Source: a virus
Lineage: Duplodnaviria; Caudoviricetes
Direction: 5' to 3' (one strand)
DNA: 64,000 nucleotides
Virus record (IMG/VR): IMGVR_UViG_2558860250_000001
Location: 1-64,000 of that record
Shown here: positions 630-50,614 of the stretch, in pieces
Position numbering within the stretch: the stretch's first letter is position 1
Layout: every line of letters begins with the position of its first letter
Notes under the pieces: generated by a model
The model's database searches: none
What the model saw: the letters and a program-made list of their open reading frames with translations, nothing else
What the model was told of the DNA's origin: nothing
Program-made: the position numbers and the translations under genes

Positions 630-644
630 ATTATTTTGTCCTCC

Positions 645-11037: not shown

Positions 11038-11055
11038 GTTCTGCGTTTCACCACC

Positions 11056-30950: not shown

Positions 30951-31222
30951 CGCGACATCGCCTCCAATCCATTTTCACTCCACTACATGTCGTCGCACGG
31001 TGCTCACCGTTTCCACAATTTCATACTGCGCGTACCCATGCTTACGTGCTTCTGATTCAGCCAATTCATGCGGAATAGGGTCTATACACGACGCATACTC
31101 CTTCTCGCTGCTTTCATCAAACAAGATAAGTTGATATGTACGATATACTTCCGCGTCATATTGGCGCGATGACATATGTGCCACCTCCAGTTTGAGTGGG
31201 GAAGGGGGTATCCCCCAACCCG

Positions 31223-31774: not shown

Positions 31775-31845
31775 CTTCTCAACACTCTCCTTTGATTTAA
31801 TTATATCAATTATATCATACAATTCACATGTGGGATAGTATAAAC

Positions 31846-33582
31846 TCAAATTTTCGATTTGTACCAATCCAGTATTCCGTCATGCATGTTCTCGTTCATG
31901 TACGCAACACATTGTTGGATGATATCTGGACAGTCATCGTTCACGGTACTGCCTGTTGGCGTGAACTTTTCCAATTGGTCAAGCAACATGTAATGCGTTG
32001 GATTAAATCGCAATGAACCGTTTGACACCATCGGCTCCAACTCGGCGATACGGTCTTCTTTGGACTTGTTCTGTTTCGGTGGAACCTCTACAACCTTAGT
32101 TCCATACACATTTCGGCGCTGCAATTCCTCTAACAACTGATCGTAGAACGAACCTTGATACGCAGTTGATTCTACGATAAACACTTTTGGACGATATTGT
32201 TCGATAAAGTCTGCTGCCCGTTTCAACTGCTCGCTAACCTTCGCCTTGAACGGATCACAGTGAACAATGTACATGGCGCCGGACTCACTCTTCACAACAC
32301 GACCAATAACGATGAAATCACCTTTGGCTTTACCACGAGCTAAGTCAATACCAGCCACATCTTGTCTGCAATCCGCAATGGCAATTTTATGTCCGTGGTC
32401 GTATATGAACTCACCATCGAAATTCTCGTAATACGTGAAATTATCCTTGACAAACAGTTGTCTGGATTTGTCTATTGGATCATTTTGCTGCTCGGTTTGG
32501 AATGCCAATGGATTGGTGATTTTTAGATCCATCAACATTTTGTAATCACGTTTTTCCGGCCACAATACAACAGCGCCTCTGTTCATTTCCTCCTTATTAT
32601 CCTCGTAGAATTTCTGGCTTTCTGGCCCACGATTAGGGTTACTGAAGTCCTTTACAATAGTCTCATATTGATGCCATAAGTCCTGTCGGTCAGCGTCACG
32701 AATCACAGCTTGCCAGAACAATGTTTCCCATTCATGTTGTCGTTTTGTGTATATCTGATGAAGCAACGAGTCGTACGCCAAAATAGTACCGGCATAAAAG
32801 TATTTACTATTACGACTATCGCCCAATGGCATGAACTCTTTGTCGAACTTGTCCACCATTTTTTGTATAGCTTCGCGATTAGTAACGTTTTCACGATCTT
32901 CTAAGTCATCGAAAATCAAATCTGGTCGAGATACTCCGCTACGCGCACCACGCAAAGGTGAGTCTGCGCCGTAACACTCGATGGTGATACCGTTTAGCGT
33001 TGTAATTGCGTCTTCTCTGTCCATGATGTTCCGTTGGGGAACTTCAGACATTAACTCGCCGAAATCCTCACGAAACTTTTTGTTATATTTCAGTACATCT
33101 TTAATGAACTTCATCAGACGGACAACGGTTGGACGCATGGCTGATATGAAAATTGTATAGTTGGTCAATTCATAAGCAATACTATGTATGATATTGATTT
33201 GCGATATGACGGCGCTTTTCGCGTGTTCGCGTGGCGCAATAATAGCCAGTCTCGCTACACCAGGTCTGTCCTTGACCTCCAACACCTTTTTCGCCATCTC
33301 ATAATGAAATGGTGGGGAAGGGGTCTCATTGCGCAATAGAAACTGTTCTGGATTACTGCCGCGTTCTTCGGATAGATATTCCTTGGCAAACTCCATCATA
33401 TCCCATCGGCACCGTTCAATGCGCTCCAACTTTTTCAATTCCGCATTGACAGTGAGCAACACCTGTCTGTCCACAGTTGACAAATTTTCTATCTTACCGC
33501 TGGCTTTCCGCACAAGTTTCTTCTTAATTTCCTCAAGTTTGTCGATGCGTTCGCGACGCTGTTTATCCTTTTCTGTTAACAT
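31846..33582 (-). CDS. terL: Terminase large subunit
   Basis: APREHAKS Walker A, RGAR..RPDLIFDDLED Walker B, GT coupling motif, GIDLA, DDCPD nuclease acidic residues. Confidence 0.93.
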   Translation of the reverse strand: MLTEKDKQRRERIDKLEEIKKKLVRKASGKIENLSTVDRQVLLTVNAELKKLERIERCRWDMMEFAKEYLSEERGSNPEQFLLRNETPSPPFHYEMAKKVLEVKDRPGVARLAIIAPREHAKSAVISQINIIHSIAYELTNYTIFISAMRPTVVRLMKFIKDVLKYNKKFREDFGELMSEVPQRNIMDREDAITTLNGITIECYGADSPLRGARSGVSRPDLIFDDLEDRENVTNREAIQKMVDKFDKEFMPLGDSRNSKYFYAGTILAYDSLLHQIYTKRQHEWETLFWQAVIRDADRQDLWHQYETIVKDFSNPNRGPESQKFYEDNKEEMNRGAVVLWPEKRDYKMLMDLKITNPLAFQTEQQNDPIDKSRQLFVKDNFTYYENFDGEFIYDHGHKIAIADCRQDVAGIDLARGKAKGDFIVIGRVVKSESGAMYIVHCDPFKAKVSEQLKRAADFIEQYRPKVFIVESTAYQGSFYDQLLEELQRRNVYGTKVVEVPPKQNKSKEDRIAELEPMVSNGSLRFNPTHYMLLDQLEKFTPTGSTVNDDCPDIIQQCVAYMNENMHDGILDWYKSKI

Positions 33583-34112
33583 CTCACCAACTCACTTTCT
33601 GCCAAACCGAGTGACAATGCTTCATCCGCATATATGTACCATTCGTTCACTGTACCTTTAATTTGATCTAGCTGTTCTTGCCTAATTTTCGTCTTACTGA
33701 TTACGTAGTCGTCGTACATTTTCATCCAGCGCGTATCTTCTTTTTGTCGTCGCATACGTTCAGTCAAAGTGCCCCATGTGCACCCGTTCATGTCGTGGTA
33801 CATAAAAATGGCCAAATTATGTACAAATCTCTTATGACCAGATAGAAATATAAGCAACGACATACTAGCCACTAATCCCATTGCGACAGTATGAATCGGT
33901 GTTTCACTTGACTCTATAGCACCTACTAATGCAAATCCATCCGTAACGTTGCCGCCAGGACTATTGATAGCCAGTGTAATCGGTAAACGCTGATGGCCAA
34001 CCACCTTCAATACCTGTTCATCATCGTGGTTGTTAATCTCATTTATTTTCTCAATTAGTTTAGAAACTGTACCACTATTAATCTCATCAAATAACAACAA
34101 TCTCCGATTCAA
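33576..34112 (-). CDS. clpP: ClpP-like serine protease (S14)
   Basis: INSPGG.V, G.VASM, FMYH, ADEAL.LGL. Confidence 0.85.
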   Translation of the reverse strand: MNRRLLLFDEINSGTVSKLIEKINEINNHDDEQVLKVVGHQRLPITLAINSPGGNVTDGFALVGAIESSETPIHTVAMGLVASMSLLIFLSGHKRFVHNLAIFMYHDMNGCTWGTLTERMRRQKEDTRWMKMYDDYVISKTKIRQEQLDQIKGTVNEWYIYADEALSLGLAESELVRC

Positions 34113-34350
34113 CTCATCACCACCTTTGGAATATACGTGCTACGTTCACCATTGCATCAGTGATTCCGATAACCAACGCCAACACAATCACCGAAAAAAA
34201 GATACGGGTGTGTCATTGCCCATAGCCACATACTGTTCACCCCTTATAATTCGTTGTTTGAGGCACCTAGCGTCCATTCTGACGGCTTTTGTATCATCGC
34301 ATGATAAAATGGTCGTACGCATCATATCCAAGCGTTAAATGTGCCAAGTT

Positions 34351-35070
34351 TTAACGTTTTTCTAATCTCACATTAAATATTTGTACCATGTCATCTGCCA
34401 CTTCCATTGGCATCAAATATTGTCGTGCGAATTCTTTCCCTTGTAATCCGCGACGATATGTAGCCATGACAGGATATCGTTTGCGTATCAATGACATCAC
34501 CTTACGATCCTCTGTATATCCAGCGATATGTTCATCATCGTACTTCCACAATCGATTATGTACGCTCATCATCGCATTCACACTCCTCGCACAATTCACC
34601 GCAACTACCACAACGGTCACATTCGCATCGACCTATCCATAGGTTGCATTGTTCACAACGCCTAAACCATTCACCGTCAATCGGTCGCCATCCGCAATCA
34701 GCACATCTGTAATCGTCCACCATATATCCACGCCCATCACGGTCGATGCCATCCAAATATGTATCGCACACTAAATCAGCATTGCATCGTGGGCATGTGT
34801 GGTCACTCAATATCATCACGTATTGTCAACTCATCAAACATCTCCTTATTGTTGGTATCTAGCGCATAGTCGATTAACATTTTGCGCACCAATTTCTCCG
34901 CATCCTTGGTGTCGCCTAGTCGTGGCGTAAATTCTTTGATGGAAGATATGTACCGCCTGTACATGCCGTTGTCATATGTAATTATCCCTTGTAGATGTTG
35001 AATGTTGTACTTGCGGCACAATACAAACAACTCTAAGAAGAATTTATTCATGTCTTCGGCATTCACGATG
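34351..35070 (-). other. Three small hypothetical genes (34351-~34570, Cys-rich 34556-~34813, 34803-~35066)
   Basis: Overlapping stop/start chain behind a promoter near 35090-35115. Confidence 0.45.
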
Positions 35071-35208
35071 ACACCTCCAATTTGTTTTAATTTAATTATA
35101 TCGATTATATAATACAAAATCAATAGTTGCTTTGATATAAAAATGGCGGTATATTGTGTGCATAACTTCGCTATAATGATTTTAACGAAGCACATGGAGG
35201 CGATGATG

Positions 35209-36096
35209 ATGCTGACAACGAGTGTGTCGTCTGCGGATACAAATTATATCAACTTGTACTTGTCAATGTATGAAACGCAGAGCGTTGAAACGATGAAAGT
35301 GTACGAAAACACAATTTCTGGATTCGTTCGATTTGTTGGCAAACCACTTAATACGGTCACGGTAGGGGATATCATCGAATACCAGAAGTCGATATCACAC
35401 TTGGCTGTATCCACACAACGCCGGATGATTAGTACGCTTAAATCATTGTACAAATTTCTCGGCGGCCAACCAGGGTATCTTATCGCCAATCCATTCGCCG
35501 TATACAAATTGCCGAAGGAACAGAAGAATGAAACAATTGAGCGAGTGTTGTCGCATGATGAGGTGGAATTAATTCGTTCATATTTACGGTCGCACAATAC
35601 TCGTGACTGGCTATTGGTGACGATGTTGTATACAACCGGTTTGCGTGTTAGTGAATTAATCAACGCCACCTGGAACGATGTATATTATGACGAAGAAGGA
35701 CATTGCGGATTGCGTGTGGTGGGGAAGGGGAACAAAGTCCGCTACGTGAAATTGCAATGTGCTTTAGTCGATGCGTTACAACATTACCGTTCGGACTGTG
35801 GATTGGATGAGGTAGAGGATGCACCACTATTTGTTAGTCGACGAGGAACTAAATTGACGAAAGAAGCCGTAGAGCAAATGGTGCGCAAAACTGTCAAAGA
35901 GGTTGGTATTCATAAACGAGTCACGCCACACTGGTTTAGACATAGTGCAGCAACATCGGCACTGTATAACGGGGCGAATGTGCATCAGGTGCAACAATTA
36001 CTCGGCCACAGTGACATGCGCGTTACCAGTCGATACGTTCACACAATCAATAAGTTACGTGACTCGGCTGTGGATTTTATCAACGTGGAAATGTGA
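35209..36096 (+). CDS. Tyrosine recombinase, XerC/D-like
   Basis: TGLRVSEL, GKGNK, HWFRHS, LLGH, RY (R-K-H-R-H-Y); SAM-like N-terminus. Confidence 0.95.
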   Translation: MLTTSVSSADTNYINLYLSMYETQSVETMKVYENTISGFVRFVGKPLNTVTVGDIIEYQKSISHLAVSTQRRMISTLKSLYKFLGGQPGYLIANPFAVYKLPKEQKNETIERVLSHDEVELIRSYLRSHNTRDWLLVTMLYTTGLRVSELINATWNDVYYDEEGHCGLRVVGKGNKVRYVKLQCALVDALQHYRSDCGLDEVEDAPLFVSRRGTKLTKEAVEQMVRKTVKEVGIHKRVTPHWFRHSAATSALYNGANVHQVQQLLGHSDMRVTSRYVHTINKLRDSAVDFINVEM

Positions 36097-36145
36097 TCAT
36101 AGAACACTTAATGTTATATTTTGAACACCAAATTATAATATTTAA

Positions 36146-36166
36146 GGGTGGCCGTAATGACCACCC
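36146..36166. terminator. Hairpin between convergent recombinase and DUF262 genes
   Basis: GGGTGG-N9-CCACCC. Confidence 0.55.
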
Positions 36167-36172
36167 CCAATT

Positions 36173-37249
36173 TTATGCACTCAATTGGTCTTCGTTTCTC
36201 CTGCGTCCACGTGGGCGAGGAATCTTTGGCTGATACACCGGTGCATCATCAATGTGCTTCTCAAAATCGCGTATCATAACATTAATACGCTTTTGCACAT
36301 TTTCCTTTTTAGCACTACCGCCACGAGTGGCTTCGTTATAGGCGCTCCCATTTCGTTGCCGATTAAAGAATTGCTGTGCCCATCCGCCAAACTTTAATGG
36401 TGGCACTTCTAACTCCAATGCTTTCATAGCCACTATGAACAAATTGGGCAAGTGTGTTTTACGCAGGAATGTTTCGCGTTTAGCGCCTTCTACAATAGGG
36501 AACGCTTCACCCAAATAGTCGGTCACAACATTGATTGTTTCAGACACTTTATCTGATATGCCTGTGTCGCGTAACCACTTGACGAATTCTTTTACGGACG
36601 CACCACCGATATCAGCACCTGCGCCATCATTGGCTACCAATAGCATAATCTGTAAAATCAACTCTTCATGAGTGAATCGACTACGCATTGTCGATGTGAA
36701 ATTGACACTATCGGTGAAAAATGGCTTTGTTACGATTGACTCCACAAACTCAATTACATCCGACCCAGCCATAGCGCGCGTCAACTCAATTGGTTTTAGT
36801 GCAATACCACGGTTGAGACGGATAAAGGCCTCTTCAATCTGCTCCTCAGTCATGCCACGCATCTGCACAAACTCGATAGAAGCGTTGTTAAACCTTTGCC
36901 GAAGTATTTCTGGTAGTTCTTTATATGTCAAGTTAGCAATTTCATATTCCTCATCATCCAACTCAACGGAAGGTGTATTGTCGGCCAAAGCGTATTCTCC
37001 ATCAATGAATCCCAATATTGCCCTTGTACGTTGTTTACCGTTTAGCACCCACAGGTATGTGTCACCTTTGTCAACCGCATAAATGTCAGGCACAGGATAA
37101 CCTTGTGTCAACGAGTGGATAAGTAGGGACTTATCTTCTAGTTTCCATACGTCATTACGTTGAAATTTTATATCTAGTCGAATCTGCTTGCGTTCGAGAG
37201 CAATTTGTCCAACAGTCTTACTAACCCTAGATGTACTAATCACGTCCAC
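36173..37249 (-). CDS. DUF262 (ParB/Srx-like, GmrSD N-terminal type) domain protein
   Basis: FQR..VW......LI.S...GYPVP.I, VLNGKQR, F.RLN.G..L. Confidence 0.85.
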   Translation of the reverse strand: MDVISTSRVSKTVGQIALERKQIRLDIKFQRNDVWKLEDKSLLIHSLTQGYPVPDIYAVDKGDTYLWVLNGKQRTRAILGFIDGEYALADNTPSVELDDEEYEIANLTYKELPEILRQRFNNASIEFVQMRGMTEEQIEEAFIRLNRGIALKPIELTRAMAGSDVIEFVESIVTKPFFTDSVNFTSTMRSRFTHEELILQIMLLVANDGAGADIGGASVKEFVKWLRDTGISDKVSETINVVTDYLGEAFPIVEGAKRETFLRKTHLPNLFIVAMKALELEVPPLKFGGWAQQFFNRQRNGSAYNEATRGGSAKKENVQKRINVMIRDFEKHIDDAPVYQPKIPRPRGRRRNEDQLSA

Positions 37250-37291
37250 ACTCTCCTTATGGAATTCTTAATTGCATTATACCACGTTTAA

Positions 37292-39730
37292 TCAAATTTT
37301 AGACCGCAATCTGATATCGCGTAATACGTCATTGATTGGGCGACCGTACCGTTTGCTGTGTTCACGTGTAAGTGCGCTGTTGTATCGTGTTTCATAACGT
37401 TTGTATACAAGAGGTGGCGCATGATATAAGAATGGTGTTTGATACTCGCCACTGGTATCCCGCCACACAGCTATAAACTGGAAACGCTTAACCTGTTCTT
37501 TCGCTTCCTCTGGTGTAAATGTAGGAGTGAGAACATCCTTGAGCCGTGTGAATACGTCGAGTGAACTGTTGTTGCCAAGATGCCAGTTGACGCCACTGGA
37601 CATTAGTACATCAGTGAAATCCTTCGTCAACTTTTTGAAGTCATAAAACGCGAATATTGGTGCGATGCGATATTTCGGCCCCTCATACAACATGCGCTGT
37701 AAAAATGATACAAGTCCAGGTGTTTCATATTGATGTGGTTCGTTAAAAATGCAATACGTACGCCCACCACATCCACTTATTTTCGTAAGGAATATGACCA
37801 ATGTCAGCCAATGCATAATTGTTTTCACCGCCATTGGTCCTAAGTCACGTGATGGTATACGAACAATTATCACTTTGTTCTCGTTCATCCATTTGCCCCA
37901 CGTAATTTTAGGATTATATCGTTGACCGAACAGTGGCTTGAGGAAGGCGTCGCGTTGTATCTTGTTTAAACGTGTAATGATTGGTGCAGCTACCGTTGCA
38001 CGCATACTGTCTGACGATAATTCGTTAAATTGCTGTAGTGCGTCGATAGCTTCCTCGTCGTTCAACTCGTGTAGTACCTTTTCGCGTAATTGTGCGTTTG
38101 TTAGCAATGACCGTATCATGACAGGATCGGCATTTGCCGCTTGTGCGAACCCTTGTAAATAATCTTCGGTACGATGTTCATCACCGTCGCCCATTAGGAA
38201 TGAGGTCAACTCTTGCGCGATTCTGTTGCGAATAATACGCGCTGATTTGAATGACGCAATATCTTGCAATCCAAGATATATCGGGTACTCGTAGTCACCC
38301 AAGTTCAAATCAATCACATCATCCTGATTCAGCGCATCGCGTACCGAATCAGACATACCACGTTCACCACGTTCATCAATCGCGTCTAATATGACAGTTC
38401 CAATATTATGTTTCTTCTTGGCTTCAACAATAAAGTTGACAATGGCCATATCCTTGCCTGCACGTGGAGATGCAACAAATGCACGAGGTGTAAATAACAT
38501 ATCATCATCTTTAGTGGGGAGGAAAACTGGTTTCGATTCTCCACGATATACGACATCGCCCATGTATATACCTTTATCATCCGTAAACACACTCGGCACT
38601 TCAACTTCAACGGTACGATTAGCCTCCAACACATCTTTATATTCCTGTTGCAAGTCTGATGTTGGCAATTGTACCAACTTACCGATCTCTTCGTTGCTGA
38701 GTAACACAGGATCACGGTCAATCACGTTGTATTGTAGATGATTACACATATCAACTATTCCAATGCGACGTGGTTCAATCACCAATTGATTTTTTCCATT
38801 CAACTCGACAAACGACGCACCAACACTCTGTATCAACATATCACGACGCACACGATCTTCTGAGTGAATCAATACGTACAATGACGATTTGAATACAGGT
38901 CGATTTTGTTTGTTCATCGTATCTGAACCTAATTCACCATCAACCAGTAATCGTTGTCGTTCTAAATCCTTTATCTCAAGACGCCCTATTGTTATTTGGT
39001 CTGACTTACGAGTGCTAAATACACTTTGCTCAATTCCGTTGACGACATCTTCTGTCATATCGACTATTTGATTCACCGTACCCGTCACAAGTTTGCTGGC
39101 TGATTGAACCGCATTGGCGGGTTTTATTTTATTGCGTTGCGGCACTTTATCGTTGTTCCAAATATGCCACGCGTAATCAGCCGAGCGCTTCCATTTCATA
39201 CGAGGATATGCTTCAAATCGCATGTGAAGCGATACTTTGTCGCCTGGTTTGAGTTGACGAATGACATCCATCAAATTGCGTAGTGGGGAAGTCTGTTCAC
39301 TGTAATTACATCGCAGGCTGAATATGTTGTTTCGTATCAATCTCAATTCGCCAACGGATGTATTGTTTGGTGTTACGTTAACGTCATCAGTCGATGCCTC
39401 TGTCAACGTATTGTTGTGCCATTGGTCGTGATTGGCGAGACGTAGTTTCAAGGTGTCATTAAATGTATCTGTGACAGCCATATAAAATTGTATCTGTCGC
39501 TGTTCATTTTCGTCGCACATCAACTGTACAATCCACCAAATATCATCCTTGTTGCGTACTTCGATATGTTTTCCTCGCCGTATTGTGCGTGTAGAAATGG
39601 GGGAGTAGAGGGACATTAATTCATGTAACACTAACCACAAACGTCTATTTTGACTGTTTAATACGGACTTGTGTGGCGTGATGCGATAAATGCGATGTGT
39701 GTTAGGGATGATTCGGATAGGCGAGTACAT
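37292..39730 (-). CDS. VirD4/TraG/HerA-FtsK-superfamily ATPase-like protein with degenerate motifs
   Basis: ASPRAGKD (Walker A-like), CIFNEPHQY (Walker B-like), EGPKY, PI..RL..I; long N-terminal domain. Confidence 0.65.
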   Translation of the reverse strand: MYSPIRIIPNTHRIYRITPHKSVLNSQNRRLWLVLHELMSLYSPISTRTIRRGKHIEVRNKDDIWWIVQLMCDENEQRQIQFYMAVTDTFNDTLKLRLANHDQWHNNTLTEASTDDVNVTPNNTSVGELRLIRNNIFSLRCNYSEQTSPLRNLMDVIRQLKPGDKVSLHMRFEAYPRMKWKRSADYAWHIWNNDKVPQRNKIKPANAVQSASKLVTGTVNQIVDMTEDVVNGIEQSVFSTRKSDQITIGRLEIKDLERQRLLVDGELGSDTMNKQNRPVFKSSLYVLIHSEDRVRRDMLIQSVGASFVELNGKNQLVIEPRRIGIVDMCNHLQYNVIDRDPVLLSNEEIGKLVQLPTSDLQQEYKDVLEANRTVEVEVPSVFTDDKGIYMGDVVYRGESKPVFLPTKDDDMLFTPRAFVASPRAGKDMAIVNFIVEAKKKHNIGTVILDAIDERGERGMSDSVRDALNQDDVIDLNLGDYEYPIYLGLQDIASFKSARIIRNRIAQELTSFLMGDGDEHRTEDYLQGFAQAANADPVMIRSLLTNAQLREKVLHELNDEEAIDALQQFNELSSDSMRATVAAPIITRLNKIQRDAFLKPLFGQRYNPKITWGKWMNENKVIIVRIPSRDLGPMAVKTIMHWLTLVIFLTKISGCGGRTYCIFNEPHQYETPGLVSFLQRMLYEGPKYRIAPIFAFYDFKKLTKDFTDVLMSSGVNWHLGNNSSLDVFTRLKDVLTPTFTPEEAKEQVKRFQFIAVWRDTSGEYQTPFLYHAPPLVYKRYETRYNSALTREHSKRYGRPINDVLRDIRLRSKI

Positions 39731-39742
39731 ACGGACACTCCC

Positions 39743-39922
39743 TTAAAATAAATGCTCGATTATGTCATTCAACATATAAGCATCGAATGACCATAAACTG
39801 TGCGAATGTTGAAGTACCGATGCCAATTCGATCAATTGTATATCATTGGCATGTTTCGCAAAATCAATGAGTTGTTGCTTGTTGTCTGTATCAAATTGCG
39901 TTCCACCTATCACGACTACCAT
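39743..39922 (-). CDS. Small hypothetical protein
   Basis: Fills gap in operon; GAAGGGA RBS. Confidence 0.45.
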   Translation of the reverse strand: MVVVIGGTQFDTDNKQQLIDFAKHANDIQLIELASVLQHSHSLWSFDAYMLNDIIEHLF

Positions 39923-39927
39923 ATTAG

Positions 39928-40575
39928 TCATCCCTTCACAAATATCATCCATGCAGCACCAATACCAGAAGCAATCCATAATCTAGGTGCCCAGACTTTG
40001 CTTCCGAACATCTTCAGAAATCCTCCAATAACCAACGTTGCCACAACGATATATGGCATCTGTTCGGTTAATTCGTGCACAAGCTCTCGCAAAAGCCCAT
40101 TGACGCCATCGCCTATTGCATTGCCAATTGAACTGAACCATCCAGACACAACTTTGTGTGACCAGTCACCACCACCATAGAGCACACTCGGTTCCATGAC
40201 TTGGTGTAAGTTGATGTATCGTTCGGGATTAATCCATTCGCCATGTGGGTCCATAATTCCGAGATGAAGGTGGGGTCCAGTGCTATGTCCACTATCCCCA
40301 CTACGCGCGATGATTTCTTGTACATATACATGGTCGCCTGGTTTGACATACACTTTGTCGAGATGCCCAAGTACAGCCGTGTACCCATCATTAAATTTGA
40401 GCCAAATTGCATTGCCGAATCCAGCATTGTCGTGTGTAACTTTGTCGACTACGCCACCCTCAAACGCCCGTATTGGTGTATCCATTGCGACACCAAAATC
40501 AATTCCTTGATGTAGGTGATCGGAGTGCGCTGCGTCATGTTCATGCCATCCACTCGTAATGCGCCAAGTTGTCAT
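39928..40575 (-). CDS. M23 (LytM-type) peptidoglycan endopeptidase with C-terminal TM helices
   Basis: HQGID, GN, GHL, SG.SG.STGPHLH, NP; two hydrophobic C-terminal segments. Confidence 0.9.
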   Translation of the reverse strand: MTTWRITSGWHEHDAAHSDHLHQGIDFGVAMDTPIRAFEGGVVDKVTHDNAGFGNAIWLKFNDGYTAVLGHLDKVYVKPGDHVYVQEIIARSGDSGHSTGPHLHLGIMDPHGEWINPERYINLHQVMEPSVLYGGGDWSHKVVSGWFSSIGNAIGDGVNGLLRELVHELTEQMPYIVVATLVIGGFLKMFGSKVWAPRLWIASGIGAAWMIFVKG

Positions 40576-40778
40576 GACGCCCCACGCCCACGCATCAATT
40601 TCACTTTCTGGCTCGTATCACAAATGAATTCATATGCACCCGTTACGCATTCGGTGGCGCCGATAGTTGCTAACAATGGTATCCAACCACCCATCATCCA
40701 AACAGGAATACTCGCAACCGTTGCAGCCATATATAGCGCCAAATCCGCTTTCGTTTCCGTCTTAGCAAAAAATATCAT
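40572..40778 (-). CDS. Small membrane protein
   Basis: Two hydrophobic segments; GGAGG RBS. Confidence 0.55.
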   Translation of the reverse strand: MIFFAKTETKADLALYMAATVASIPVWMMGGWIPLLATIGATECVTGAYEFICDTSQKVKLMRGRGAS

Positions 40779-40790
40779 CGCAATTCCTCC

Positions 40791-41099
40791 TTAGAACTTT
40801 AGTAACCAACGTATGATTTGGGGAGCATGTATTATCACCTCCAGTCCAATCGCCATGTCGAGTAGTCGTTTGATAGCCAACGAACGATTGCCGAACATCC
40901 ATAAGAACCCTGTGATGACTGCAATCGAAATAGCAGTCCAATCTGCGGCTTTAATCACTTCAGGCCAGATATCATCAAAATCGAAATCATGGTTTCGACT
41001 ACTCGCTGGAATCCCATCATCAAAAGAAGATGATCGTAAATTGGCGACGTTTGTTGAGTTATTAAAAAAGTCATTCCACTTTATCGTCTCCGCACGCAT
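40791..41099 (-). CDS. TrbC/VirB2 pilin-like membrane protein
   Basis: Two TM hairpin ..IAVITGFLWMFG.R..A..RL....IG...I..AP.I. Confidence 0.5.
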   Translation of the reverse strand: MRAETIKWNDFFNNSTNVANLRSSSFDDGIPASSRNHDFDFDDIWPEVIKAADWTAISIAVITGFLWMFGNRSLAIKRLLDMAIGLEVIIHAPQIIRWLLKF

Positions 41100-41100
41100 A

Positions 41101-41325
41101 TCAATGACCTCCAGTTAGGGCATTTAATATTTCGGTCAACATCTCGTGGTGAGTCTGAGCCAATTTAATCAACTCGTGAATAGCCGCCGTACTTTGACCT
41201 TTTAGATTCGCCGCTTCAGCCTTAATTTGAGCCATTTCAGCTGCGTGTTCATTATTGATACGTGCGAGTGCCTTTGCTTTACGTGTCTCCATCGCACCTT
41301 TAACGATGATGCCCATAAGTCCCAT
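41101..41325 (-). CDS. Small coiled-coil protein
   Basis: GGAGG RBS before MGLMG. Confidence 0.55.
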   Translation of the reverse strand: MGLMGIIVKGAMETRKAKALARINNEHAAEMAQIKAEAANLKGQSTAAIHELIKLAQTHHEMLTEILNALTGGH

Positions 41326-41326
41326 T

Positions 41327-41443
41327 TTATTGACCTCCAATCGCAGTTAAAAACATATCGATTACGTCTTGTATATTGAGTTGTGTCGGCAAGTCCGATG
41401 GATTGACTTTGGCTAACCATTGCATTGCTTTAATCCACAGCAC
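41327..41443 (-). CDS. 38-aa peptide MLWIKAMQWLAKVNPSDLPTQLNIQDVIDMFLTAIGGQ (not in ORF track)
   Basis: GTG behind AAAGAGGTG; stop abuts next start. Confidence 0.5.
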   Translation of the reverse strand: MLWIKAMQWLAKVNPSDLPTQLNIQDVIDMFLTAIGGQ

Positions 41444-41627
41444 GCAACTTCACCTCTTTAGAGTATTGAACCAATGGGCATACATGTTGCGGTTGCTTAC
41501 GACGTTGCAATACGGCATATCCAACGCCCCAAATTGCGATAGGATAGGTGGCTGACAATATTGCGCATACACTTGCAGCACCAACAAATGTTGTAAAAAC
41601 AATTACACCTTTAATTTTAGGCGACAT
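41430..41627 (-). CDS. Small membrane protein (MSPKIKG...)
   Basis: GAAAGAGGTG RBS; hydrophobic core. Confidence 0.55.
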   Translation of the reverse strand: MSPKIKGVIVFTTFVGAASVCAILSATYPIAIWGVGYAVLQRRKQPQHVCPLVQYSKEVKLRAVD

Positions 41628-41628
41628 C

Positions 41629-41658
41629 GAATATTCACCTCTTTCTGCGGACACACTA
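41629..41658 (+). promoter_or_regulatory. SigF/SigG-like forespore promoter
   Basis: GAATA-N15-GGACACACTA (also GAATA-N18-CACACTA). Confidence 0.55.
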
Positions 41659-41691
41659 CCCTCAACAAATAAACCAATTGGAGTGATCAAT

Positions 41692-41775
41692 ATGTTCGCG
41701 GAACCTTTGTACCTTTTCATCGGCGGCGCAATTGGAGCTGTGCTAAACGTGTTGGCCGGAGTGTGGCATTTTTAA
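41692..41775 (+). CDS. 27-aa hydrophobic peptide MFAEPLYLFIGGAIGAVLNVLAGVWHF
   Basis: GGAGTGA RBS; downstream of SigF/G-like promoter. Confidence 0.55.
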   Translation: MFAEPLYLFIGGAIGAVLNVLAGVWHF

Positions 41776-41867
41776 TGGGATATATCATTGGAACCATTAC
41801 GCTATTGGGTATAACAATTTGGACTGCACACGATTGGGTGCATTTGGCACATGTACTGCACCCGTAA
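41775..41867 (+). CDS. 30-aa peptide MGYIIGTITLLGITIWTAHDWVHLAHVLHP
   Basis: TAATG coupling; stop abuts the convergent gene's stop at 41868. Confidence 0.5.
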   Translation: MGYIIGTITLLGITIWTAHDWVHLAHVLHP

Positions 41868-42170
41868 TTAAATTAATCCATCCAGTATATCGTCGTCTGA
41901 TATGGGGACATTATCCATGACGGATGATTTGATAGTGGGTGCAGGCGGTGTGGTTGCTTGCGCCCCATTTTGCATCATCAACCGAACACGTCTCACACAC
42001 TCGCGTATACGACCAGCACGATTGGGCGCGGAATATATCCATTCTAAATCTGCGCGTTGTTCAGAATCGAGCACATTCCATCCGGTTGACATAGTGACAA
42101 TTTCACACTTATCGCTGCGTCTGTAACTTTTTACTGAGTAACCGGCCAACTGTATAGTATGACTTTGCAT
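41868..42170 (-). CDS. ParR-like adaptor / DNA-binding protein
   Basis: Directly after ParM; L.W....N....IR..VR; acidic tail; GAAGGAG RBS. Confidence 0.55.
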   Translation of the reverse strand: MQSHTIQLAGYSVKSYRRSDKCEIVTMSTGWNVLDSEQRADLEWIYSAPNRAGRIRECVRRVRLMMQNGAQATTPPAPTIKSSVMDNVPISDDDILDGLI

Positions 42171-42928
42171 TCGCGTACACTCCTTCTTCGATGGACACAA
42201 CATCTTTCAATCCATATTCGCGTAACGCAACTGCTAGTATTTCGGCGGTACCGCCCATCGTGTACACTGGTCCATTGAATCCCCACATGTGTTTCATCAA
42301 ATCGAACGCAATCAATCGCGCTAAATCGTGAAACTCCATTTCCTTATTTAACACTCCGTATGGCAACGTACCCGACCGCAAATCCATCCATTTTCCATTT
42401 TCCCACGTTACATAATTTGTTGTCGCGCCACCCAAGTCGATCCCATGTACTATGCCCGATTTAGACGGAAGTAGATACACACAACTCGCACACTCCGGCA
42501 CCACATCCACTCGTTCAATTGTGATTTGTTTGACACGACCATCAACTTCAATAGCGTGTTGCCCCCAACATCAACCGTTTCATCCGTTCCTTTTCATCCG
42601 GTACATGGTTGGTAATAGGGTGACCGATGACTAAGTGTACCGGTTCCTCATGCGCAGCCAATCGCGATATCGCAACTAATCCCAATATGCGTGTATCGTC
42701 GATAGCCTTCGTCGCCATAAAGTTGCGGCGTCCGTCCCGTGACTCGTTCGCTATGTTTCCGACGTAATACCGTTTGCCGATATGTTCAACCTCCATATCA
42801 TCTGGCGTGCGCTGATATTCTAGTTTGAGTGGGCGATATGTCCCTATGATGGCTGGAAACATCGCACATTTATCGTCGGTGTACGCTTTGACACTGTGAC
42901 GCCCGACATCCAATCCGATTACCTTCAA
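42109..42928 (-). pseudogene. parM: ParM/StbA actin-like partition protein, split by +1 frameshift in G5 tract (42562-42566)
   Basis: GLDVGR..VK, G.PI, V.VVPE, GIDLGGATTN, GG.A, YANA; removing one G joins the two ORFs via LGQHAIEVDGRVKQITIERV. Confidence 0.85.
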
Positions 42929-43073
42929 TGCGATTTCCTCCTTCGTGATTACCTAGTTCATACCTATACAGAGGACAAAATCGCAATACATTGTCCTTGT
43001 GTGATGCGCAAAATTATTTTTGCGCGGACATCCAATAAAGGTGCGTACAAGTTTCGCGTCGAAATAAGCCCTT

Positions 43074-43298
43074 ATGGATACGATAACTCCACTTAAACGA
43101 ATGTTAATGGAACGCGGATTGAAGAATAGATGGCTGGCCACGCAGATAGGGATGGATGAATCCAGCTTGAGTCTCATCGTTAATGGCAAACGCAAACCAA
43201 CAATCGATACCGCCATACGCATCGCACGCGCACTCGACACAACGGTCGAAGATTTATGGTATTGGACGATAAGTAACGGCGGAGATACAGATTCGTAA
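43074..43298 (+). CDS. XRE/Cro-family HTH regulator
   Basis: LK..L.ERGLK..WLA..IG......S.IVNGK..PT...A.RIA.AL....EDLW. Confidence 0.9.
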   Translation: MDTITPLKRMLMERGLKNRWLATQIGMDESSLSLIVNGKRKPTIDTAIRIARALDTTVEDLWYWTISNGGDTDS

Positions 43299-43490
43299 TC
43301 AACCAGTTAACAACGGGGAGAAGGATAAACAAAAACCCACCTAGATACGTTGTCCAGGTGGGTGTATACACTATTGCCACATCGCCGGTCGGCACAAGTG
43401 CTCGACACAGCGTATGCGAGAGGGTGGGTGAATGTTGCATGTACACGATTGTACAGATGAAATTTTATAAGCAAAATGTTTCAAGTATAA

Positions 43491-43949
43491 TCAAATATCC
43501 ATACGCATCGTCCTTCGGTGGTGCTTTTTATGCTTGTTTACCGGTTTAAGCAATTTATCTTCAGGCCACCCTTTGCGAGTTCTATAAAAAAGCACATTAG
43601 TCGGTATCCCAGTAATTTCTGACCATTCCCCTATAGACTTAGTTTCAGAGTTAATGGTCAAATAAATGGTTTTTCTCTTATTCCAATGTTGTTCTTTACG
43701 AGTTATCCATCTACAGTTACTTGGTTCGTAGTTACCGTTCACGTCTATTCTGTCGAGCGTTAAATTATCGGCATACCCATTGTTGAGCGCCCAATCAACG
43801 AACGAATCTATGTTCTCCATCCAATCGTTACATACGCGTATTCCTCTTCCACCATAGTCGGCAAAATCTTTGTCGTTTGGGTTTAAACAACGCCTCTTAG
43901 CCATATACAAAATGTTTACAAGTCGCTCCCTTCTCTTGTCTAAATACAT
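43491..43949 (-). CDS. HNH homing endonuclease
   Basis: KRRC.N....YGGRGI.VC..W..F..WA..GY..LTLDRID.NGNYEPSNCRW. Confidence 0.9.
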   Translation of the reverse strand: MYLDKRRERLVNILYMAKRRCLNPNDKDFADYGGRGIRVCNDWMENIDSFVDWALNNGYADNLTLDRIDVNGNYEPSNCRWITRKEQHWNKRKTIYLTINSETKSIGEWSEITGIPTNVLFYRTRKGWPEDKLLKPVNKHKKHHRRTMRMDI

Positions 43950-43950
43950 A

Positions 43951-44714
43951 TTACATTCCTCCGAAAAAAGCATCTGTCCATGGTTCAACCTCAACCACAC
44001 ATTCACGCAACCGTTCGGCCAGTTCAGTGATTTCGTGTTGTGCACCTCGACCTTTTCGACGTTTGCTATAAAAATCGAGCAAAGCGCGTAGATTAGCAGT
44101 CATCGTCAAGTTTGTTGCGGTTGCGTTGGGCAATATTGCGCGTGCATCTTCTGATGGAATGCCGTAATGCCGTAACATATCGTACACTTGCTGCAACCTT
44201 TTCATTGTTTCAACGAATATGTCGAGAGCCGCAGAATTGTTGATGGTTTCCGGCACAACATAATCGAATCCACCTGACTTATCACCGCTACCCAATTTCA
44301 CGTACCGTTGCGACTGTACACTGAAACTAAATCCGACACGATGACGCGTAAGTTGGGCGAGTAGGGCACGTGATACACCTTCTACGGCAAATGTGAAGGT
44401 AATATGCTCCATGGTGGAAGTGTGTTTAGATGCAACAATTTGACGAAATAGCCGATCTGCATCCGTACCCGTACCACCATCAGTTGCTTGTTTGCCGAAA
44501 TATTTATCACCTTCAACCTCTACAATTTCAGATGGTTTGAGTGGGGAATAGCATGTACGAATAGCTGATAATGCAACCGCCTGTCCATGTGTTGCATCAA
44601 TTGGTGGTGCAACATATGCATCGAATGGTTCGTCACACATAAACAATTTATCCCGCATTTGTTCAGTCAATTGCGTATGTGCTAATAGCGTAACCGACAT
44701 CGTTGTTTCAGCCA

Positions 44715-44715
<1 letters not shown>
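43951..44715 (-). CDS. thyX: FAD-dependent thymidylate synthase
   Basis: H.S.MEH, SRA..AQL.RHR..FS.QSQRY, EDAR.ILP, AQ.EI. Confidence 0.95.
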
Positions 44716-46433
<1,718 letters not shown>

Positions 46434-46442
<9 letters not shown>

Positions 46443-46793
46443 CAAGTCACCACCATTCGGTTTATAAATGTCAACTGGTTTGCCGCATTTCCGTGCAATA
46501 TCAATCGTATGTTTAGTTCCCTTGCTTTTACCGTCCCAAAATGCAACAACCTTGTCTGCGTAGTTCACAATATCTACATTTCTTCGATACCCAGCCGATT
46601 TTCCGTATTTATCCCAATCGGCGTGGAATACCTTGACTGTCATCCCGCGTTGACGCGCAAACGTTTCAGCGTATGAATCAACTCCTCGTGCGCCACCTGA
46701 TACAACAACGTCTTCAATGGGGAGTGAATTAATGTACCAAAAAATATCATCTTGGTTAGGATAGTTTCGCGAACCGACAATGGCGATATTCAT
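46434..46793 (-). CDS. SLOG family (YspA/DUF2493-like) protein
   Basis: AIVGSR, VSGGARGVD, ADW..YGK.AG..RN, FWDGKSKGT. Confidence 0.88.
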
Positions 46794-48269
46794 TCAACCA
46801 CACCATCCCATCGTTCAAATTGTGTGATGCCATCGTTGTGTGCTTGTTGGGAACGTAATTGATTGACCATCATTTGCTCATATCCACGCACTGCTAACTT
46901 TGCAAACTCGACGTATCGACCAGTCCATTCATTGCGCTTATCCCATCCAGTATGCGTCCTATATACCAACTTCCATTTTAGGAATCGAGAATTACGCTTG
47001 ACGTAGACACGTGCGACAAGGTTGTAGAGTCTGGCGGTAACATACTTGTCTTCCAGGTCTACGTAATACTCACCAACAATGGTGGTAACAGGATACTTGG
47101 ATAACTTAACGGGTTCCATTATTATCACCGTCGCTTCCTTGGTTATAATTTGTGCGATTTTCGGATCAATGCGCAATCTATACACACACCGTTATGTACG
47201 ATGGTTTTTTCGCCACATTTGCAACATGCAGTAGTTGATGTCTGTTCGCCACCGTCCACATCACCATCAAGTCTGACCAATTGCAATGCCCATTCGTCGG
47301 CGGAGTAGATGGTGTATTCATAATCATACTCACTCCACAATTTAACTATTTCATCAAATGAATCCCACTCAGATCTAAGCGTGCCATCGCGTAAGAATAA
47401 CAAGCCTTTTGTGCCGCGTTTTGTCGATATGCACATAATTGGCTCGCCAGTAAACCATACAATTACATCACCAGCACGGAGCGTGCGATTCAGCGATTGG
47501 TTAGGTGTGATTAGTTGCATTGATTATTCATCCCCTTTGCGGTATAGGCTTCGGCATATGATAGGAAGATGTCATATGATCCATATATGCGTTCGCCAAT
47601 TACATATACCAGTATGTCGTCGTCGGGAATATTGGCTACGCGGTCAATTATGACTTCGACAACTTCGCCAGAATCAATGGTATAAACTTTGTCACCAATT
47701 TCAAACATTATTCACGGCCTCCATATAATCTATTGAGGTAACATCAATTGATATATGTACCACGTTGGATTGTGCAATTCTTGATAAATATTGATTCCGT
47801 TGATTATCAACACCACAGCGCCAGCAAACGCAAATAACAATAACACGCCATGGTATACTTGGCGACAATCGAATCAATGATGGAGATATTCATGTGATTA
47901 CTCATTAGTCAATTCAGATTCCAGATATGCTATGGTGCTTTCGATATTATCCAAATTATCCATTGCCTGTTTCAAATCGCGACGCAATAGTTCAGCACGT
48001 GTACGATAAATCATTTCAGAGGTCACATAATATTCTCCATCATCAGTAGAAATCCCATATTCGTAATATCTATTGAATTTATCAATCAGATTCTTTACGG
48101 TGACAGTTCCGTACAATTTAATTTCATAGTCGTCGTCCAAACGGAACACAAACCATACTGTTTCGCCTAATTGTGGTTTATACAAGTGGGCACCTCCTAT
48201 GTGATACAATACCATAATTATACTGATAACCATCCGATCACAGTGAACGCAACAGCCACAGCCAACCAA
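46790..48269 (-). other. Small hypothetical genes (46790-47185, 47143-47520, 47511-47708, 47898-~48185)
   Basis: Tightly packed ORFs with RBS. Confidence 0.45.
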
Positions 48270-48270
48270 A

Positions 48271-48774
48271 TCAATATGCCGAGGATAGTGGTCCCTCCTT
48301 TAACAACTGTACATAATACCCGTAATCTCCATCATGTGTAGTGGAGTATGTACATGCGTCCAGACGGATATGGTCGGTTGAAACAAACCGCTTGAAATAA
48401 TCCAACTTACGCAGCGACGCATCTGATAACTCGGCATAACACTGCGCAAAGTAATCACGGCAATTGTGTGCGCGTACATATGCGTAAATTTCGCGACCGA
48501 ACCAATGTCGATTAAGCACGTATTCAATCCACACTAGCCCTTGGTACACGGAACGTGGAGTGGATTTGTTTGCGCCGTAATCGTGAACAATACAGTGATA
48601 ACCGAGTGCAAGGGACATGAGGAAATTATAGTCCAGTTCGCGAATAATATAGTCCCATCGATGTTGTTCGCAAGCTGTCGACTGGATACGGATAAACGCA
48701 TAGTCGGAGTTGAGCGATGGGATAGCTTCGATCCCATTGGTGAGATTGATAAAGTGCTTATCCAGTTCAATCAC
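48271..48774 (-). CDS. Hypothetical protein
   Basis: Own promoter near 48787-48807; NLTNG, RIQST..E segments. Confidence 0.6.
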   Translation of the reverse strand: MIELDKHFINLTNGIEAIPSLNSDYAFIRIQSTACEQHRWDYIIRELDYNFLMSLALGYHCIVHDYGANKSTPRSVYQGLVWIEYVLNRHWFGREIYAYVRAHNCRDYFAQCYAELSDASLRKLDYFKRFVSTDHIRLDACTYSTTHDGDYGYYVQLLKEGPLSSAY

Positions 48775-48809
48775 CCCCTTTCAACTTTATATCAATTATA
48801 TCATATAAA

Positions 48810-50600: not shown

Positions 50601-50614
50601 CGAACGTATGTTCT
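50601..50614. promoter_or_regulatory. Bacillus-type LexA (SOS) box
   Basis: CGAAC-GTAT-GTTCT matches CGAACRNRYGTTC. Confidence 0.5.

Follow-up and report, generated by a model that had tools for sequence, protein, structure and literature searches.

Layout and identity of the cassette

The 64,000-nt DNA sequence analyzed here (hereinafter, the window; positions 1 to 64,000 of the IMG/VR record IMGVR_UViG_2558860250_000001, Duplodnaviria, Caudoviricetes) contains, between positions 37,292 and 43,298, a cassette of genes for an actin-like protein of the ParM type, a ribbon-helix-helix protein, a VirB2/TrbC-like membrane protein, a membrane-anchored M23 peptidase and an 812-aa ATPase, preceded by a divergent gene for an XRE-family regulator (Table 1). 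The initial annotation, made from the sequence alone, portrayed this region as one compact locus, and indeed all the cassette open reading frames (ORFs), which run from 42928 to 37292 in the ORF list, are tightly packed on the minus strand. The cassette is almost certainly a copy of a known accessory cassette that is carried by phages and phage-like plasmids whose hosts are endospore-forming Firmicutes, and it resides here in a chromosomal prophage. It is a member of an already known kind, not a new type of system, and its genes are real and belong together. The observations of the initial annotation are partly confirmed overall and its interpretation, a sporulation-linked machine for partition or translocation of a phage-plasmid, is partly supported; what stands is a single functional cassette with kinship to type IV secretion, with a peptidoglycan-cutting enzyme among its products.

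The window is part of a 4.22-Mb chromosome contig, and the genes for a penicillin-binding protein, YceG and alanyl-tRNA synthetase are located directly beyond window position 1. The element is therefore integrated, and its sheath, portal, terminase and lysin genes mark it as a myovirus-like prophage instead of the phage-plasmid that had been assumed. No nucleotide-level match of the window to any phage record was found.

The constant core of the cassette consists of four parts, namely a ribbon-helix-helix DNA-binding protein, a VirB2/TrbC-like membrane protein, a membrane hairpin homologous to gp31.2 of phage SPP1, and a soluble, two-domain ATPase of the VirB4 type. The actin-like ParM, partnered by the same ribbon-helix-helix protein acting as ParR, is an optional front end of this core. 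The order ribbon-helix-helix, VirB2-like, gp31.2, ATPase recurs, the full order having been read directly in about nine loci; a hidden Markov model (HMM) of the gp31 family, the SPP1 counterpart of the ribbon-helix-helix protein, matches in 20 of the 29 loci scanned, and a gp31-family protein precedes the VirB2-like gene in the loci where the order was read.

Table 1. Genes and sites of the cassette region, with window coordinates and principal evidence
Feature	Position	Strand	Evidence
Divergent XRE-family helix-turn-helix (HTH) regulator, 74 aa	43074..43298	+	PF01381 HTH_3 1.6e-11
Divergent control region with perfect 20-nt palindrome	42929..43073	.	read from sequence
Actin-like ParM/ALP gene, frameshifted	42109..42928	-	ALP_N 1.3e-16, phrog_691
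ParR-like ribbon-helix-helix protein (candidate), 74 aa from internal ATG	41868..42092	-	weak gp31-family HMM match, C-terminal tail
96-aa membrane protein, peculiar to this version of the cassette	41430..41720	-	hydrophobic segment at about residues 36-66
79-aa helical, coiled-coil-like protein, peculiar to this version of the cassette	41101..41340	-	weak coiled-coil-type Pfam matches
VirB2/TrbC-like two-helix membrane protein, 102 aa, gp31.1 family	40791..41099	-	PF04956 E 7.1e-5
68-aa hydrophobic hairpin protein, peculiar to this version of the cassette	40572..40778	-	ORF and sequence
M23 metallopeptidase with predicted gp31.2 membrane anchor, 215 aa	39928..40575	-	PF01551 4.5e-23
Small soluble ORF, 78 aa (or about 62 aa from internal ATG); gene status uncertain	39743..39979	-	ORF only
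Predicted two-domain VirB4-type ATPase, 812 aa, Walker pair GKD and NE	37292..39730	-	phrog_5156 4.4e-172

The large protein is a predicted VirB4-type ATPase

The 812-aa protein aligns with the phrog_5156 profile from residue 9 to residue 806 (profile positions 25-804 of 824) and shows 32% identity to SPP1 gp32 over 98% of its length; across gp32 of SPP1, Geobacillus phage GBK2 and phage 0105phi7-2, and the proteins of SP-10-like myoviruses (tblastn), identity ranges from 27 to 34% over 97-98% of the length. A paralog of the ATPase encoded in the same genome (see below) links it to gp27.4 of phage SPO1. By these sequence comparisons, the protein is a full-length member of the phrog_5156 family that includes SPP1 gp32 and SPO1 gp27.4. 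Profile searches with the established domain models give next to nothing: no Pfam or NCBIfam model, those for VirB4 included, matches the ATPase at E<=0.1, only one of 52 relatives matches any Pfam model for type IV secretion, and in a profile search of the Protein Data Bank (PDB) VirB4 is retrieved at E 0.81.

Structural comparison, proposed in the initial annotation as a check and run here for the ATPase, is far more telling. The AlphaFold2 model of the 812-aa protein, built with 92 homologs, has a predicted local distance difference test score (pLDDT) of 93.7 and a predicted template modeling score of 0.86, and the top Foldseek match of the full model is the full-length TrwK/VirB4 of plasmid R388 (E 7e-13). 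The C-terminal domain (residues 377-781) aligns best to Thermoanaerobacter VirB4 (Z 28.1, 337 residues), followed by HerA (Z 26.6), DndH (26.3) and TrwB (25.4); these scores are close to that of VirB4, so that the C-terminal domain alone does not discriminate between the families. The N-terminal domain does: residues 1-375, folded separately (pLDDT 82.5) and compared with 48,161 PDB representatives, match TrwK/VirB4 with Z 16.2 (root-mean-square deviation 3.7 A over 259 residues), the next match having Z 8.4, and all 13 Foldseek matches of this domain below E 0.001 are TrwK chains. Because the fold of the N-terminal domain is specific to VirB4, the 812-aa protein is, by its predicted fold, a two-domain ATPase of the VirB4 type, and its assignment to VirD4, HerA or FtsK/SpoIIIE is rejected on the same grounds. 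The initial annotation, which took this protein for a relative of VirD4 and HerA and saw no VirB4 in the cassette, erred on this one point of its gene inventory, the 812-aa protein being itself VirB4-like. An N-terminal membrane anchor of the kind present in VirD4/TraG was sought in the model and is absent, there being no long hydrophobic helix and the N-terminal domain being globular alpha/beta; the published annotation of SPP1 gp32 likewise includes no transmembrane segment (PMC6316719).

A conserved variant of the nucleotide-binding site

The ATPase motifs had been read correctly as GKD, hhhNE and EGPKY, and were considered degenerate. In full, the window protein has ASPRAGKD as Walker A, CIFNE as Walker B, and EGPKY; the canonical forms, GxxGxGK[ST] and hhhhDE, are absent from it. 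For the comparison of motifs, 118 full-length relatives were aligned, with 331 matches at E<=0.001 obtained in a search of 1.84 billion representative proteins. The two motifs covary without exception: Walker A with Lys-Asp is paired with Walker B with Asn-Glu in 26 sequences out of 26, Walker A with Lys-Thr or Lys-Ser is paired with Asp-Glu in 90 out of 90, and no mixed combination occurs among the aligned relatives. The 26 GKD/NE proteins form one clade (support 100, FastTree), which implies a single evolutionary event, with the variant retained down to about 27% identity, and the clade takes in the working lytic phage SPP1. Throughout the family, the Walker lysine (K426) and the catalytic glutamate (E664) do not vary. 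In P-loop enzymes, the Mg ion is served both by the hydroxyl of Walker A and by the aspartate of Walker B; the Thr-to-Asp and Asp-to-Asn pair therefore suggests a rewired but working site. The GKD/NE motifs are accordingly a conserved paired substitution, characteristic of part of the family, and not decay. The Arg-to-Pro change in EGPKY is confined to the subclade of the window protein, and the same position is occupied by Ala in several canonical members, so Arg is not universally required.

A second, paralogous cassette is present in the same genome (C1:3359869-3363230; L003 1456-4820), adjoining tRNA-Leu. It encodes a 145-aa VirB2-like protein, a 214-aa M23-anchor protein (45% identical to that of the window) and an 809-aa ATPase with canonical GKT/DE motifs, so that one host holds both versions of the site.

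The VirB2-like protein and the anchored M23 peptidase

The hairpin protein resembling VirB2/TrbC that the initial annotation noted is present as the 102-aa ORF 40791-41099, albeit with a match to PF04956 (E 7e-5, 23.4 bits) that stays below the model cut-off of 27.9. The gp31.1 family to which it belongs gives clearer matches, with 15 of 22 proteins matching TrbC/VirB2 at E<=0.01 (the best at 3.9e-7) and two matching T4SS_pilin; the homolog from a Clostridium sporogenes plasmid, which is annotated as TrbC/VirB2 and adjoins the ATPase gene, scores 28.5 bits, above the Pfam cut-off. In 14 genome loci, a BLAST search with the 102-aa protein retrieves the gene that directly precedes the ATPase region. 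Most proteins of the gp31.1 family are built of a leader that ends in Ala-x-Ala, followed by two hydrophobic helices joined by GNR(T/S)KA. The two helices and a GNR(S/T)xA loop are found in the window protein, whereas the leader has no counterpart in the versions from the window and from loci L033 and L035.

The membrane-anchored M23 peptidase was recognized correctly from the start: the protein combines an M23 domain (Table 1) with a membrane hairpin at the C-terminus. The residues of the catalytic motifs HxxxD and HxH (H22, D26, H102 and H104) are invariant in 10 homologs, and hence an active peptidase is expected. An HMM derived from 11 stand-alone gp31.2-like proteins, SPP1 gp31.2 included, matches residues 125-210 of the M23 protein at E 1.3e-9, with no match among 200 shuffled sequences, and matches the same region of nine other M23-anchor proteins at E-values down to 1.7e-30. 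Given these matches to the C-terminal region, the window protein is a fusion of an M23 domain with the gp31.2 membrane anchor. The gp31.2 gene occupies the position typical of VirB3, immediately upstream of the ATPase gene and often overlapping its start.

ParM, the ParR-like protein and the control region

The ParM gene reported by the initial annotation is there, supported by matches to ALP_N and to phrog_691 ("partition protein"), the latter with both halves, but it is split between two frames and no intact ParM reading frame is present in the window. The frame changes by 1 nt at a run of five G (42562-42566), the N-terminal part spanning 42548-42928 and the C-terminal part continuing in another frame to 42109; downstream, this frame resumes the sequence expected from intact homologs of about 270 aa. 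An independently assembled contig from an RNA library (X3, 41789-45657) has the same sequence across the G run, without a gap, and accordingly the break is in the DNA and is not an assembly slip. Intact ParM homologs of 264-274 aa are encoded in loci L008, L015, L016 and L033; in the latter, the closest relative of the window cassette, the ATPase is 55% identical and ParM is intact at 269 aa. An actin-like gene is found directly upstream of the cassette in the window, SPO1 and the same four loci, with Cohnella, Paenibacillus sediminis and Niallia among the hosts. In SPO1, a strictly lytic phage, gp27.9 matches ALP_N at 2.2e-27, and the genes after it encode small proteins and gp27.4. Judging from this recurrent gene order, ParM belongs to the cassette, as an optional part.

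For the ParR-like protein, the ribbon-helix-helix and the tail of the ParM-associated type speak for the assignment, whereas its match to the gp31-family HMM is in register but weak (E 0.003, against one sequence); by position, the candidate is the equivalent of SPP1 gp31. The ribbon-helix-helix proteins that follow ParM end in an acidic-hydrophobic tail (DDDILDGLI in the window; DDFSPDGFI, DAMNDIL, NIDMLHGLI and DDDQFLL in others; LDNITFGL in SPO1 gp27.8), whereas 16 of those without ParM end in polar or basic residues. By analogy with the known contacts between ParR and ParM, the tail may be read as a ParM-binding peptide. No parC-like array of direct repeats, or other centromere-like array, was detected in positions 41700-43500.

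The divergent XRE regulator of the initial annotation holds up (Table 1). The 145-nt region between its gene and ParM contains a perfect 20-nt palindrome (43006-43025, GCGCAAAAATAATTTTGCGC), likely an operator. Homologous divergent XRE genes are present in loci L019 and L020, and an XRE gene lies upstream of the cassette in L033. The XRE protein is a probable repressor of the cassette in the lysogen.

Expression in the lysogen

In a stranded RNA-seq run from the same organism (X14; a lysogen, growth conditions unspecified), the cassette is covered at a depth of 1.6-7.5x, compared with 9-28x for other prophage genes, and the XRE gene is covered at about 15x on its own strand, compared with 2.3x on the ParM side. 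The cassette is nearly silent in this lysogen and hence is not a lysogenic maintenance function. This low depth, combined with the early transcription of the homologous genes in SPP1, points to a function in the lytic program. Another RNA-seq run (X3) covers positions 31001-51000 evenly at 13-29x, and a sister library of the same study covers only parts of this region; such even coverage suggests prophage induction or carry-over of DNA and is not read here as expression. Run X13 contributed no reads from the region.

The promoter resembling SigF/SigG sites that had been proposed within the cassette is at chance level. The SigG-type match (41629-41658) falls within the 96-aa ORF and reads on the plus strand, which is antisense to the operon; the consensus matches once in the 64 kb, compared with 2.2 times in shuffled sequences, and with a 17-nt spacing it has no match in the window.

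Directly downstream of the ATPase gene, a 358-aa gene (36173-37249, minus strand) encodes an NsnA-like/DUF262 protein (PADLOC, 1.4e-27; Pfam GmrSD_N, 1.8e-15). Its depth in X14, 110-619x, is by far the highest of the prophage genes, with sharp transcript ends at 36180 and 37256; this is probably a defense gene carried by the prophage, separate from the cassette and expressed in lysogeny.

Distribution of the cassette among phages, plasmids and hosts

Homologs were detected in 106-118 phage records, with Bacillus, Geobacillus, Lysinibacillus, Brevibacillus, Clostridium and Terrisporobacter as hosts, along with one Microcystis record (unexamined), and in 49 of 72,556 plasmids, all from Bacillus, Clostridium or Alicyclobacillus; related ATPases are encoded on 45-100 kb plasmids of the Bacillus cereus group. 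The cassette is thus found in SPP1, SPO1 and about 100 other phage records of the collection searched as well as in phage-like plasmids. The 19 genome loci come from Paenibacillus, Cohnella, Neobacillus, Niallia, Peribacillus, Bacillus, Desulfotomaculum and two Bacillota metagenome-assembled genomes (MAGs); the search that produced them used a single NEP-containing pattern and so samples the GKD/NE clade only. A more distant member comes from Mechercharimyces. There were no matches from Staphylococcus, Listeria or Lactobacillales in the phage or plasmid sets searched, in which these groups are well represented.

The co-occurrence with endospore-formers anticipated by the initial annotation is therefore seen insofar as no member comes from a non-sporulating host of the sets searched, the Microcystis record aside, but this pattern cannot separate sporulation from host phylogeny. 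The window host (genome G000) and all five other carrier genomes tested encode Spo0A. The cross-tabulation, for which 400 genomes were sampled from the phylum and 400 from the class, gave Spo0A in 34 of 35 carriers and in 334 of 400 sampled genomes, a comparison with no power given that about 84% of the sampled genomes have Spo0A. The restriction to endospore-forming Bacilli and Clostridia (again, the Microcystis record aside) is weak evidence for a link to sporulation. In the ESM Atlas, clusters with the same two-domain layout are found in Saccharimonadota, Chloroflexota and Actinomycetota (TM 0.66-0.75, about 700 residues), and are taken as a lead only.

Relationship to known systems

The closest characterized counterpart is the set of SPP1 genes 31, 31.1, 31.2 and 32, which represent the same four families in the same order, with GKD/NE motifs in both ATPases. 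The window differs from SPP1 in that its gp31.2 carries an N-terminal M23 domain and its VirB2-like protein lacks the leader, four extra small genes are interleaved, a broken ParM gene and a divergent XRE gene stand ahead of the cassette, and the element is an integrated prophage; furthermore, its Walker A lacks the GxxG glycines (SPRAGKD) and EGRKE is changed to EGPKY. In SPP1, gp32 is non-essential, belongs to the early PE5 operon and shows similarity to TrwB, VirB4 and FtsK in HHpred searches, and a trans-membrane translocon of gp32 with gp31.1 and gp31.2 has been suggested (Godinho et al., 2018; PMC6316719).

Phages 0305phi8-36 (orf200-207) and SPO1 (gp27.9-27.3) share with the window the arrangement in which the actin-like gene comes first, followed by small membrane proteins and the large ATPase. 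Unlike the window cassette, these two have canonical GKT/DE motifs and an adjacent gene of a relaxase family (Replic_Relax/CloDF13 MobC-like); in SPO1, it is gp27.3, encoded 3' of the ATPase gene, that matches Replic_Relax (2.9e-12). The "DNA translocation operon" of 0305phi8-36 was described as encoding a relaxase, a coupling ATPase, a VirB6-like protein and an MreB-like protein, with SPO1 gp27.3, 27.4 and 27.9 recognized as its counterpart; its deletion gave no laboratory phenotype, and for both phages a virion-free, cell-to-cell propagation in biofilms was the subject of speculation (Pathria et al., 2012; PMC3357382). The transfer between cells independent of virions that the initial annotation envisaged is thus the same hypothesis, already in print. 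Pathria et al. read the ATPase as a VirD4-like coupling protein (PMC3357382), whereas the fold computed here is that of VirB4. We found no functional study of the cassette later than these 2012 and 2018 papers.

Compared with the type IV secretion core of R388 (TrwL-TrwM-TrwK; PDB 7o42 and 8rtd), both domains of the window ATPase share the TrwK fold and a TrbC/VirB2-like gene stands alongside; the wall hydrolase parallels VirB1 of classical systems, and the hairpin is encoded upstream of the ATPase, where VirB3 usually lies. The differences consist in an identity of only about 10%, no Pfam match to VirB4, non-canonical Walker motifs, the phage setting, and a hydrolase that is an M23 peptidase fused to the hairpin. 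No VirB6, VirB8, VirB10, VirB11 or VirD4 was seen among the cassette ORFs scanned, in which no dedicated search was run for them, and a complete conjugative transfer system, with relaxase, coupling protein and VirB6-like channel, is not present in the cassette or among the flanking ORFs that were sampled. The description of the locus as an incomplete conjugation system without a relaxase or VirB6 agrees with these results: Replic_Relax matches on contig 2 only, and VirB6 was not seen, again with no dedicated search.

In ICEBs1 (ConE/CwlT) and pCF10 (PrgJ/PrgK), as would be the case for the cassette, a VirB4 ATPase works with a membrane-anchored cell-wall hydrolase, and PrgK of pCF10 includes a LytM/M23-type domain. 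Unlike the cassette, both include a relaxase and a coupling protein, as well as channel proteins resembling VirB6 and VirB8, and neither is known to have a VirB2-like pilin.

The front end resembles ParMRC of plasmid R1 and AlfA/AlfB of pLS32, in which an actin-like ATPase of about 270 aa likewise precedes a small ribbon-helix-helix adaptor that ends in a tail. It differs from these systems in that no centromere-like repeat array was found, ParM is broken, the element is chromosomal, and the adaptor is also present in cassettes without ParM. The parallel drawn in the initial annotation with SpoIIQ and SpoIIIE is not supported. The cassette and the sporulation proteins do share the membership of their ATPases in the FtsK/HerA/VirB4 superfamily and the membrane anchoring of an M23-fold protein, whereas SpoIIIE combines a membrane domain at its N-terminus with a motor of the FtsK type, to which the window ATPase aligns with Z of about 19 compared with 28 for VirB4. 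The M23 domain was tried as SpoIIQ and rejected: it scores 31.2 bits with NF053738, the cut-off being 250, and keeps all the catalytic residues, as an ordinary endopeptidase would.

Possible function of the cassette

The best explanation of these data, which we hold to be somewhat better than an even bet, is that the cassette encodes an ATP-driven envelope apparatus derived from type IV secretion and deployed in the lytic program. That this apparatus is a translocon of the type IV secretion kind we would put at even chances, and that its cargo is DNA is a tentative suggestion, less probable than not. In the most likely sequence of steps, the ATPase would dock on the membrane through the gp31.2 anchor during the lytic program and would spend ATP to extract the pilin-like subunit or to assemble it into an envelope-spanning conduit, for which the M23 domain would open a hole; the ribbon-helix-helix protein, together with ParM filaments where these are present, would bring phage DNA to the conduit, and DNA, or possibly protein, would leave the infected cell in a conjugation-like manner. 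Several points weigh against this scenario. Transport has never been demonstrated for any member of the cassette family; VirB4 proteins are not known to pump DNA by themselves; no coupling protein or VirB6/VirB8-like gene was seen in the cassette ORFs scanned, for which no dedicated search was run; and there is no relaxase in the window, PF13814 being found on contig 2 only. Moreover, the window VirB2-like protein lacks a signal-like leader and falls below the Pfam cut-off, gp31.2 shows no similarity to VirB3 as represented by the VirB3 Pfam model, and the Walker motifs are non-canonical, so ATPase activity is assumed. Finally, the cassette is found in strictly lytic phages with no obvious need for conjugation, and the frameshift in ParM together with the low expression could mean that the window holds a decaying copy.

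This last possibility, in the form of a remnant of a plasmid-prophage backbone whose partition and transfer genes came from a plasmid ancestor and no longer work after integration, is improbable. Apart from the ParM frameshift, confirmed by independent data, and the very low expression, it could draw on the non-canonical Walker motifs with the Arg-to-Pro change in EGPKY, on the related ATPases of the B. cereus-group plasmids and on the Xer-like recombinase inside the element. Yet the damage is seen in ParM only: the 812-aa frame is intact and is modeled with confidence (pLDDT 93.7), neither the catalytic Lys and Glu nor the M23 catalytic residues have been lost, the gp31.2 domain is retained, and the same motif variants are conserved across the clade to about 27% identity, in the functional SPP1 among others. 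Exclusion or envelope remodeling without export, whereby the cassette would block superinfecting phages, conjugation or competence, or would tune lysis, appears unlikely as well, if marginally less so. An early, non-essential accessory module is typical of exclusion genes (PMC6316719; PMC3357382), the cassette includes a membrane-anchored wall hydrolase, and in the window it adjoins the highly expressed NsnA-like defense gene; no PADLOC model matches any of the eight cassette proteins, however, the cassette is barely expressed in the lysogen, the state in which exclusion would be of benefit, and the conserved pair of VirB4 and VirB2 is more machinery than exclusion usually needs. Replication of phi29 and SPP1 is membrane-associated and MreB-dependent, and one could imagine the cassette as an organizer in which the filament, the DNA-binding protein and the anchored ATPase position or anchor replicating phage DNA at the membrane inside the cell, nothing being transported across the envelope. 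Pairs of ParM and ParR do move DNA inside cells, and in SPP1, GBK2 and locus L035 the cassette is flanked by the lysis genes on one side and the replication genes on the other; this possibility, which would leave the pilin-like protein and the extracytoplasmic wall hydrolase unexplained and has to accommodate the absence of ParM from most carriers, we consider the least probable of all.

Delivery to the forespore, the core of the initial interpretation, deserves separate consideration and is about as unlikely as exclusion. Under this scheme, ParM and ParR would push phage DNA to the pole, and the ATPase, the pilin-like protein and the M23 protein would help to carry the genome across the sporulation septum or to tether it there, raising the yield of virospores. 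Compatible with it are the host range, in which all the named genera, Microcystis aside, are endospore-forming Bacilli and Clostridia, the absence of matches from Staphylococcus, Listeria and Lactobacillales phages or plasmids, and the presence of Spo0A in all six host genomes tested; besides, SPO1, which carries the cassette with ParM, forms virospores (PMC12991052), and lytic phages of spore-formers, such as phi29, are the ones known to be trapped in spores (PMC2731898). The host pattern may, however, reflect phage host range and the sensitivity of the search, the Spo0A cross-tabulation is powerless, and the Atlas look-alikes, a lead only, come from Saccharimonadota, Chloroflexota and Actinomycetota. 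What tells against anything specific to sporulation is that the SigG-like site is at chance level and on the wrong strand, that the M23 domain does not resemble SpoIIQ and the ATPase resembles VirB4 and not SpoIIIE, that SPP1 transcribes the cassette early in vegetative cells (PMC6316719), that the element is chromosomal, and that ParM is dispensable in most carriers and broken in the window. A broader version, in which the ParR-like adaptor, aided by ParM where there is one, would take the genome to the pole and a VirB4-derived, wall-cutting translocon would pass or tether it there, so that phage DNA reaches the forespore or crosses the septum between sister cells, is no more probable, but would explain both the endospore-forming hosts and the dispensability of the cassette in ordinary laboratory growth.

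If phage DNA does move into spores or from cell to cell, the cassette would represent a virion-independent route of phage persistence or spread; otherwise, it is one more accessory module. In either case, the parts list is sharpened: a two-domain relative of VirB4, a VirB2-like partner, a gp31.2 anchor to which an M23 hydrolase is fused, a ParR-like adaptor with a tail that goes with the presence of ParM, and a fixed Thr-to-Asp/Asp-to-Asn swap in the nucleotide site. Together with the host range, this list turns a "putative translocon" into specific experiments in tractable phages.

Other genes of the cassette and its surroundings

The small ORFs interleaved with the core genes remain without family assignment: the 96-, 79-, 68- and 78-aa proteins, like the ATPase, retrieve nothing from Pfam, NCBIfam or PADLOC, the weak coiled-coil-type Pfam matches of the 79-aa protein aside. 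The 96-aa protein has no PHROG match either and no equivalent in L033, and the 68-aa hairpin protein has no family match. The 78-aa ORF likewise matches no family, and it has no counterpart in L033 or L035, whose M23 and ATPase genes overlap each other. The stop codon of the 79-aa ORF abuts the start of the next gene, and that of the 68-aa ORF overlaps the M23 start.

Phage-type genes, among them those for a KilAC antirepressor, a TnpB/Cas12f-like protein and a class II ribonucleotide reductase, run at least 8-18 kb past the window end (L027, G000:C1:3041107-3061106), so the prophage extends beyond position 64000 and is larger than the window. A gene for an Xer-like tyrosine recombinase (35143-36096, plus strand; XerC, XerD and XerA models at 1e-50 to 1e-55, none of them reaching its cut-off) separates the terminase region from the early region. 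Phage genes flank it on both sides, so it cannot mark a prophage end; the enzyme may serve dimer resolution or inversion. Recombinase genes are also found 3' of the ATPase gene in loci L007, L012 and L033. In L033, a MAG contig, the cassette is located between a cluster with a T2SSE/VirB11-family ATPase (1-3502) and a large serine recombinase (10649-12184) that abuts host spore-germination genes, and this element may not be a phage.

Within the 68-aa ORF, 6 of 17 RNA reads of X14 lack 2 nt of a (TA)3 run at 40729, a deletion that could be due to strain heterogeneity, slippage or a library artifact.

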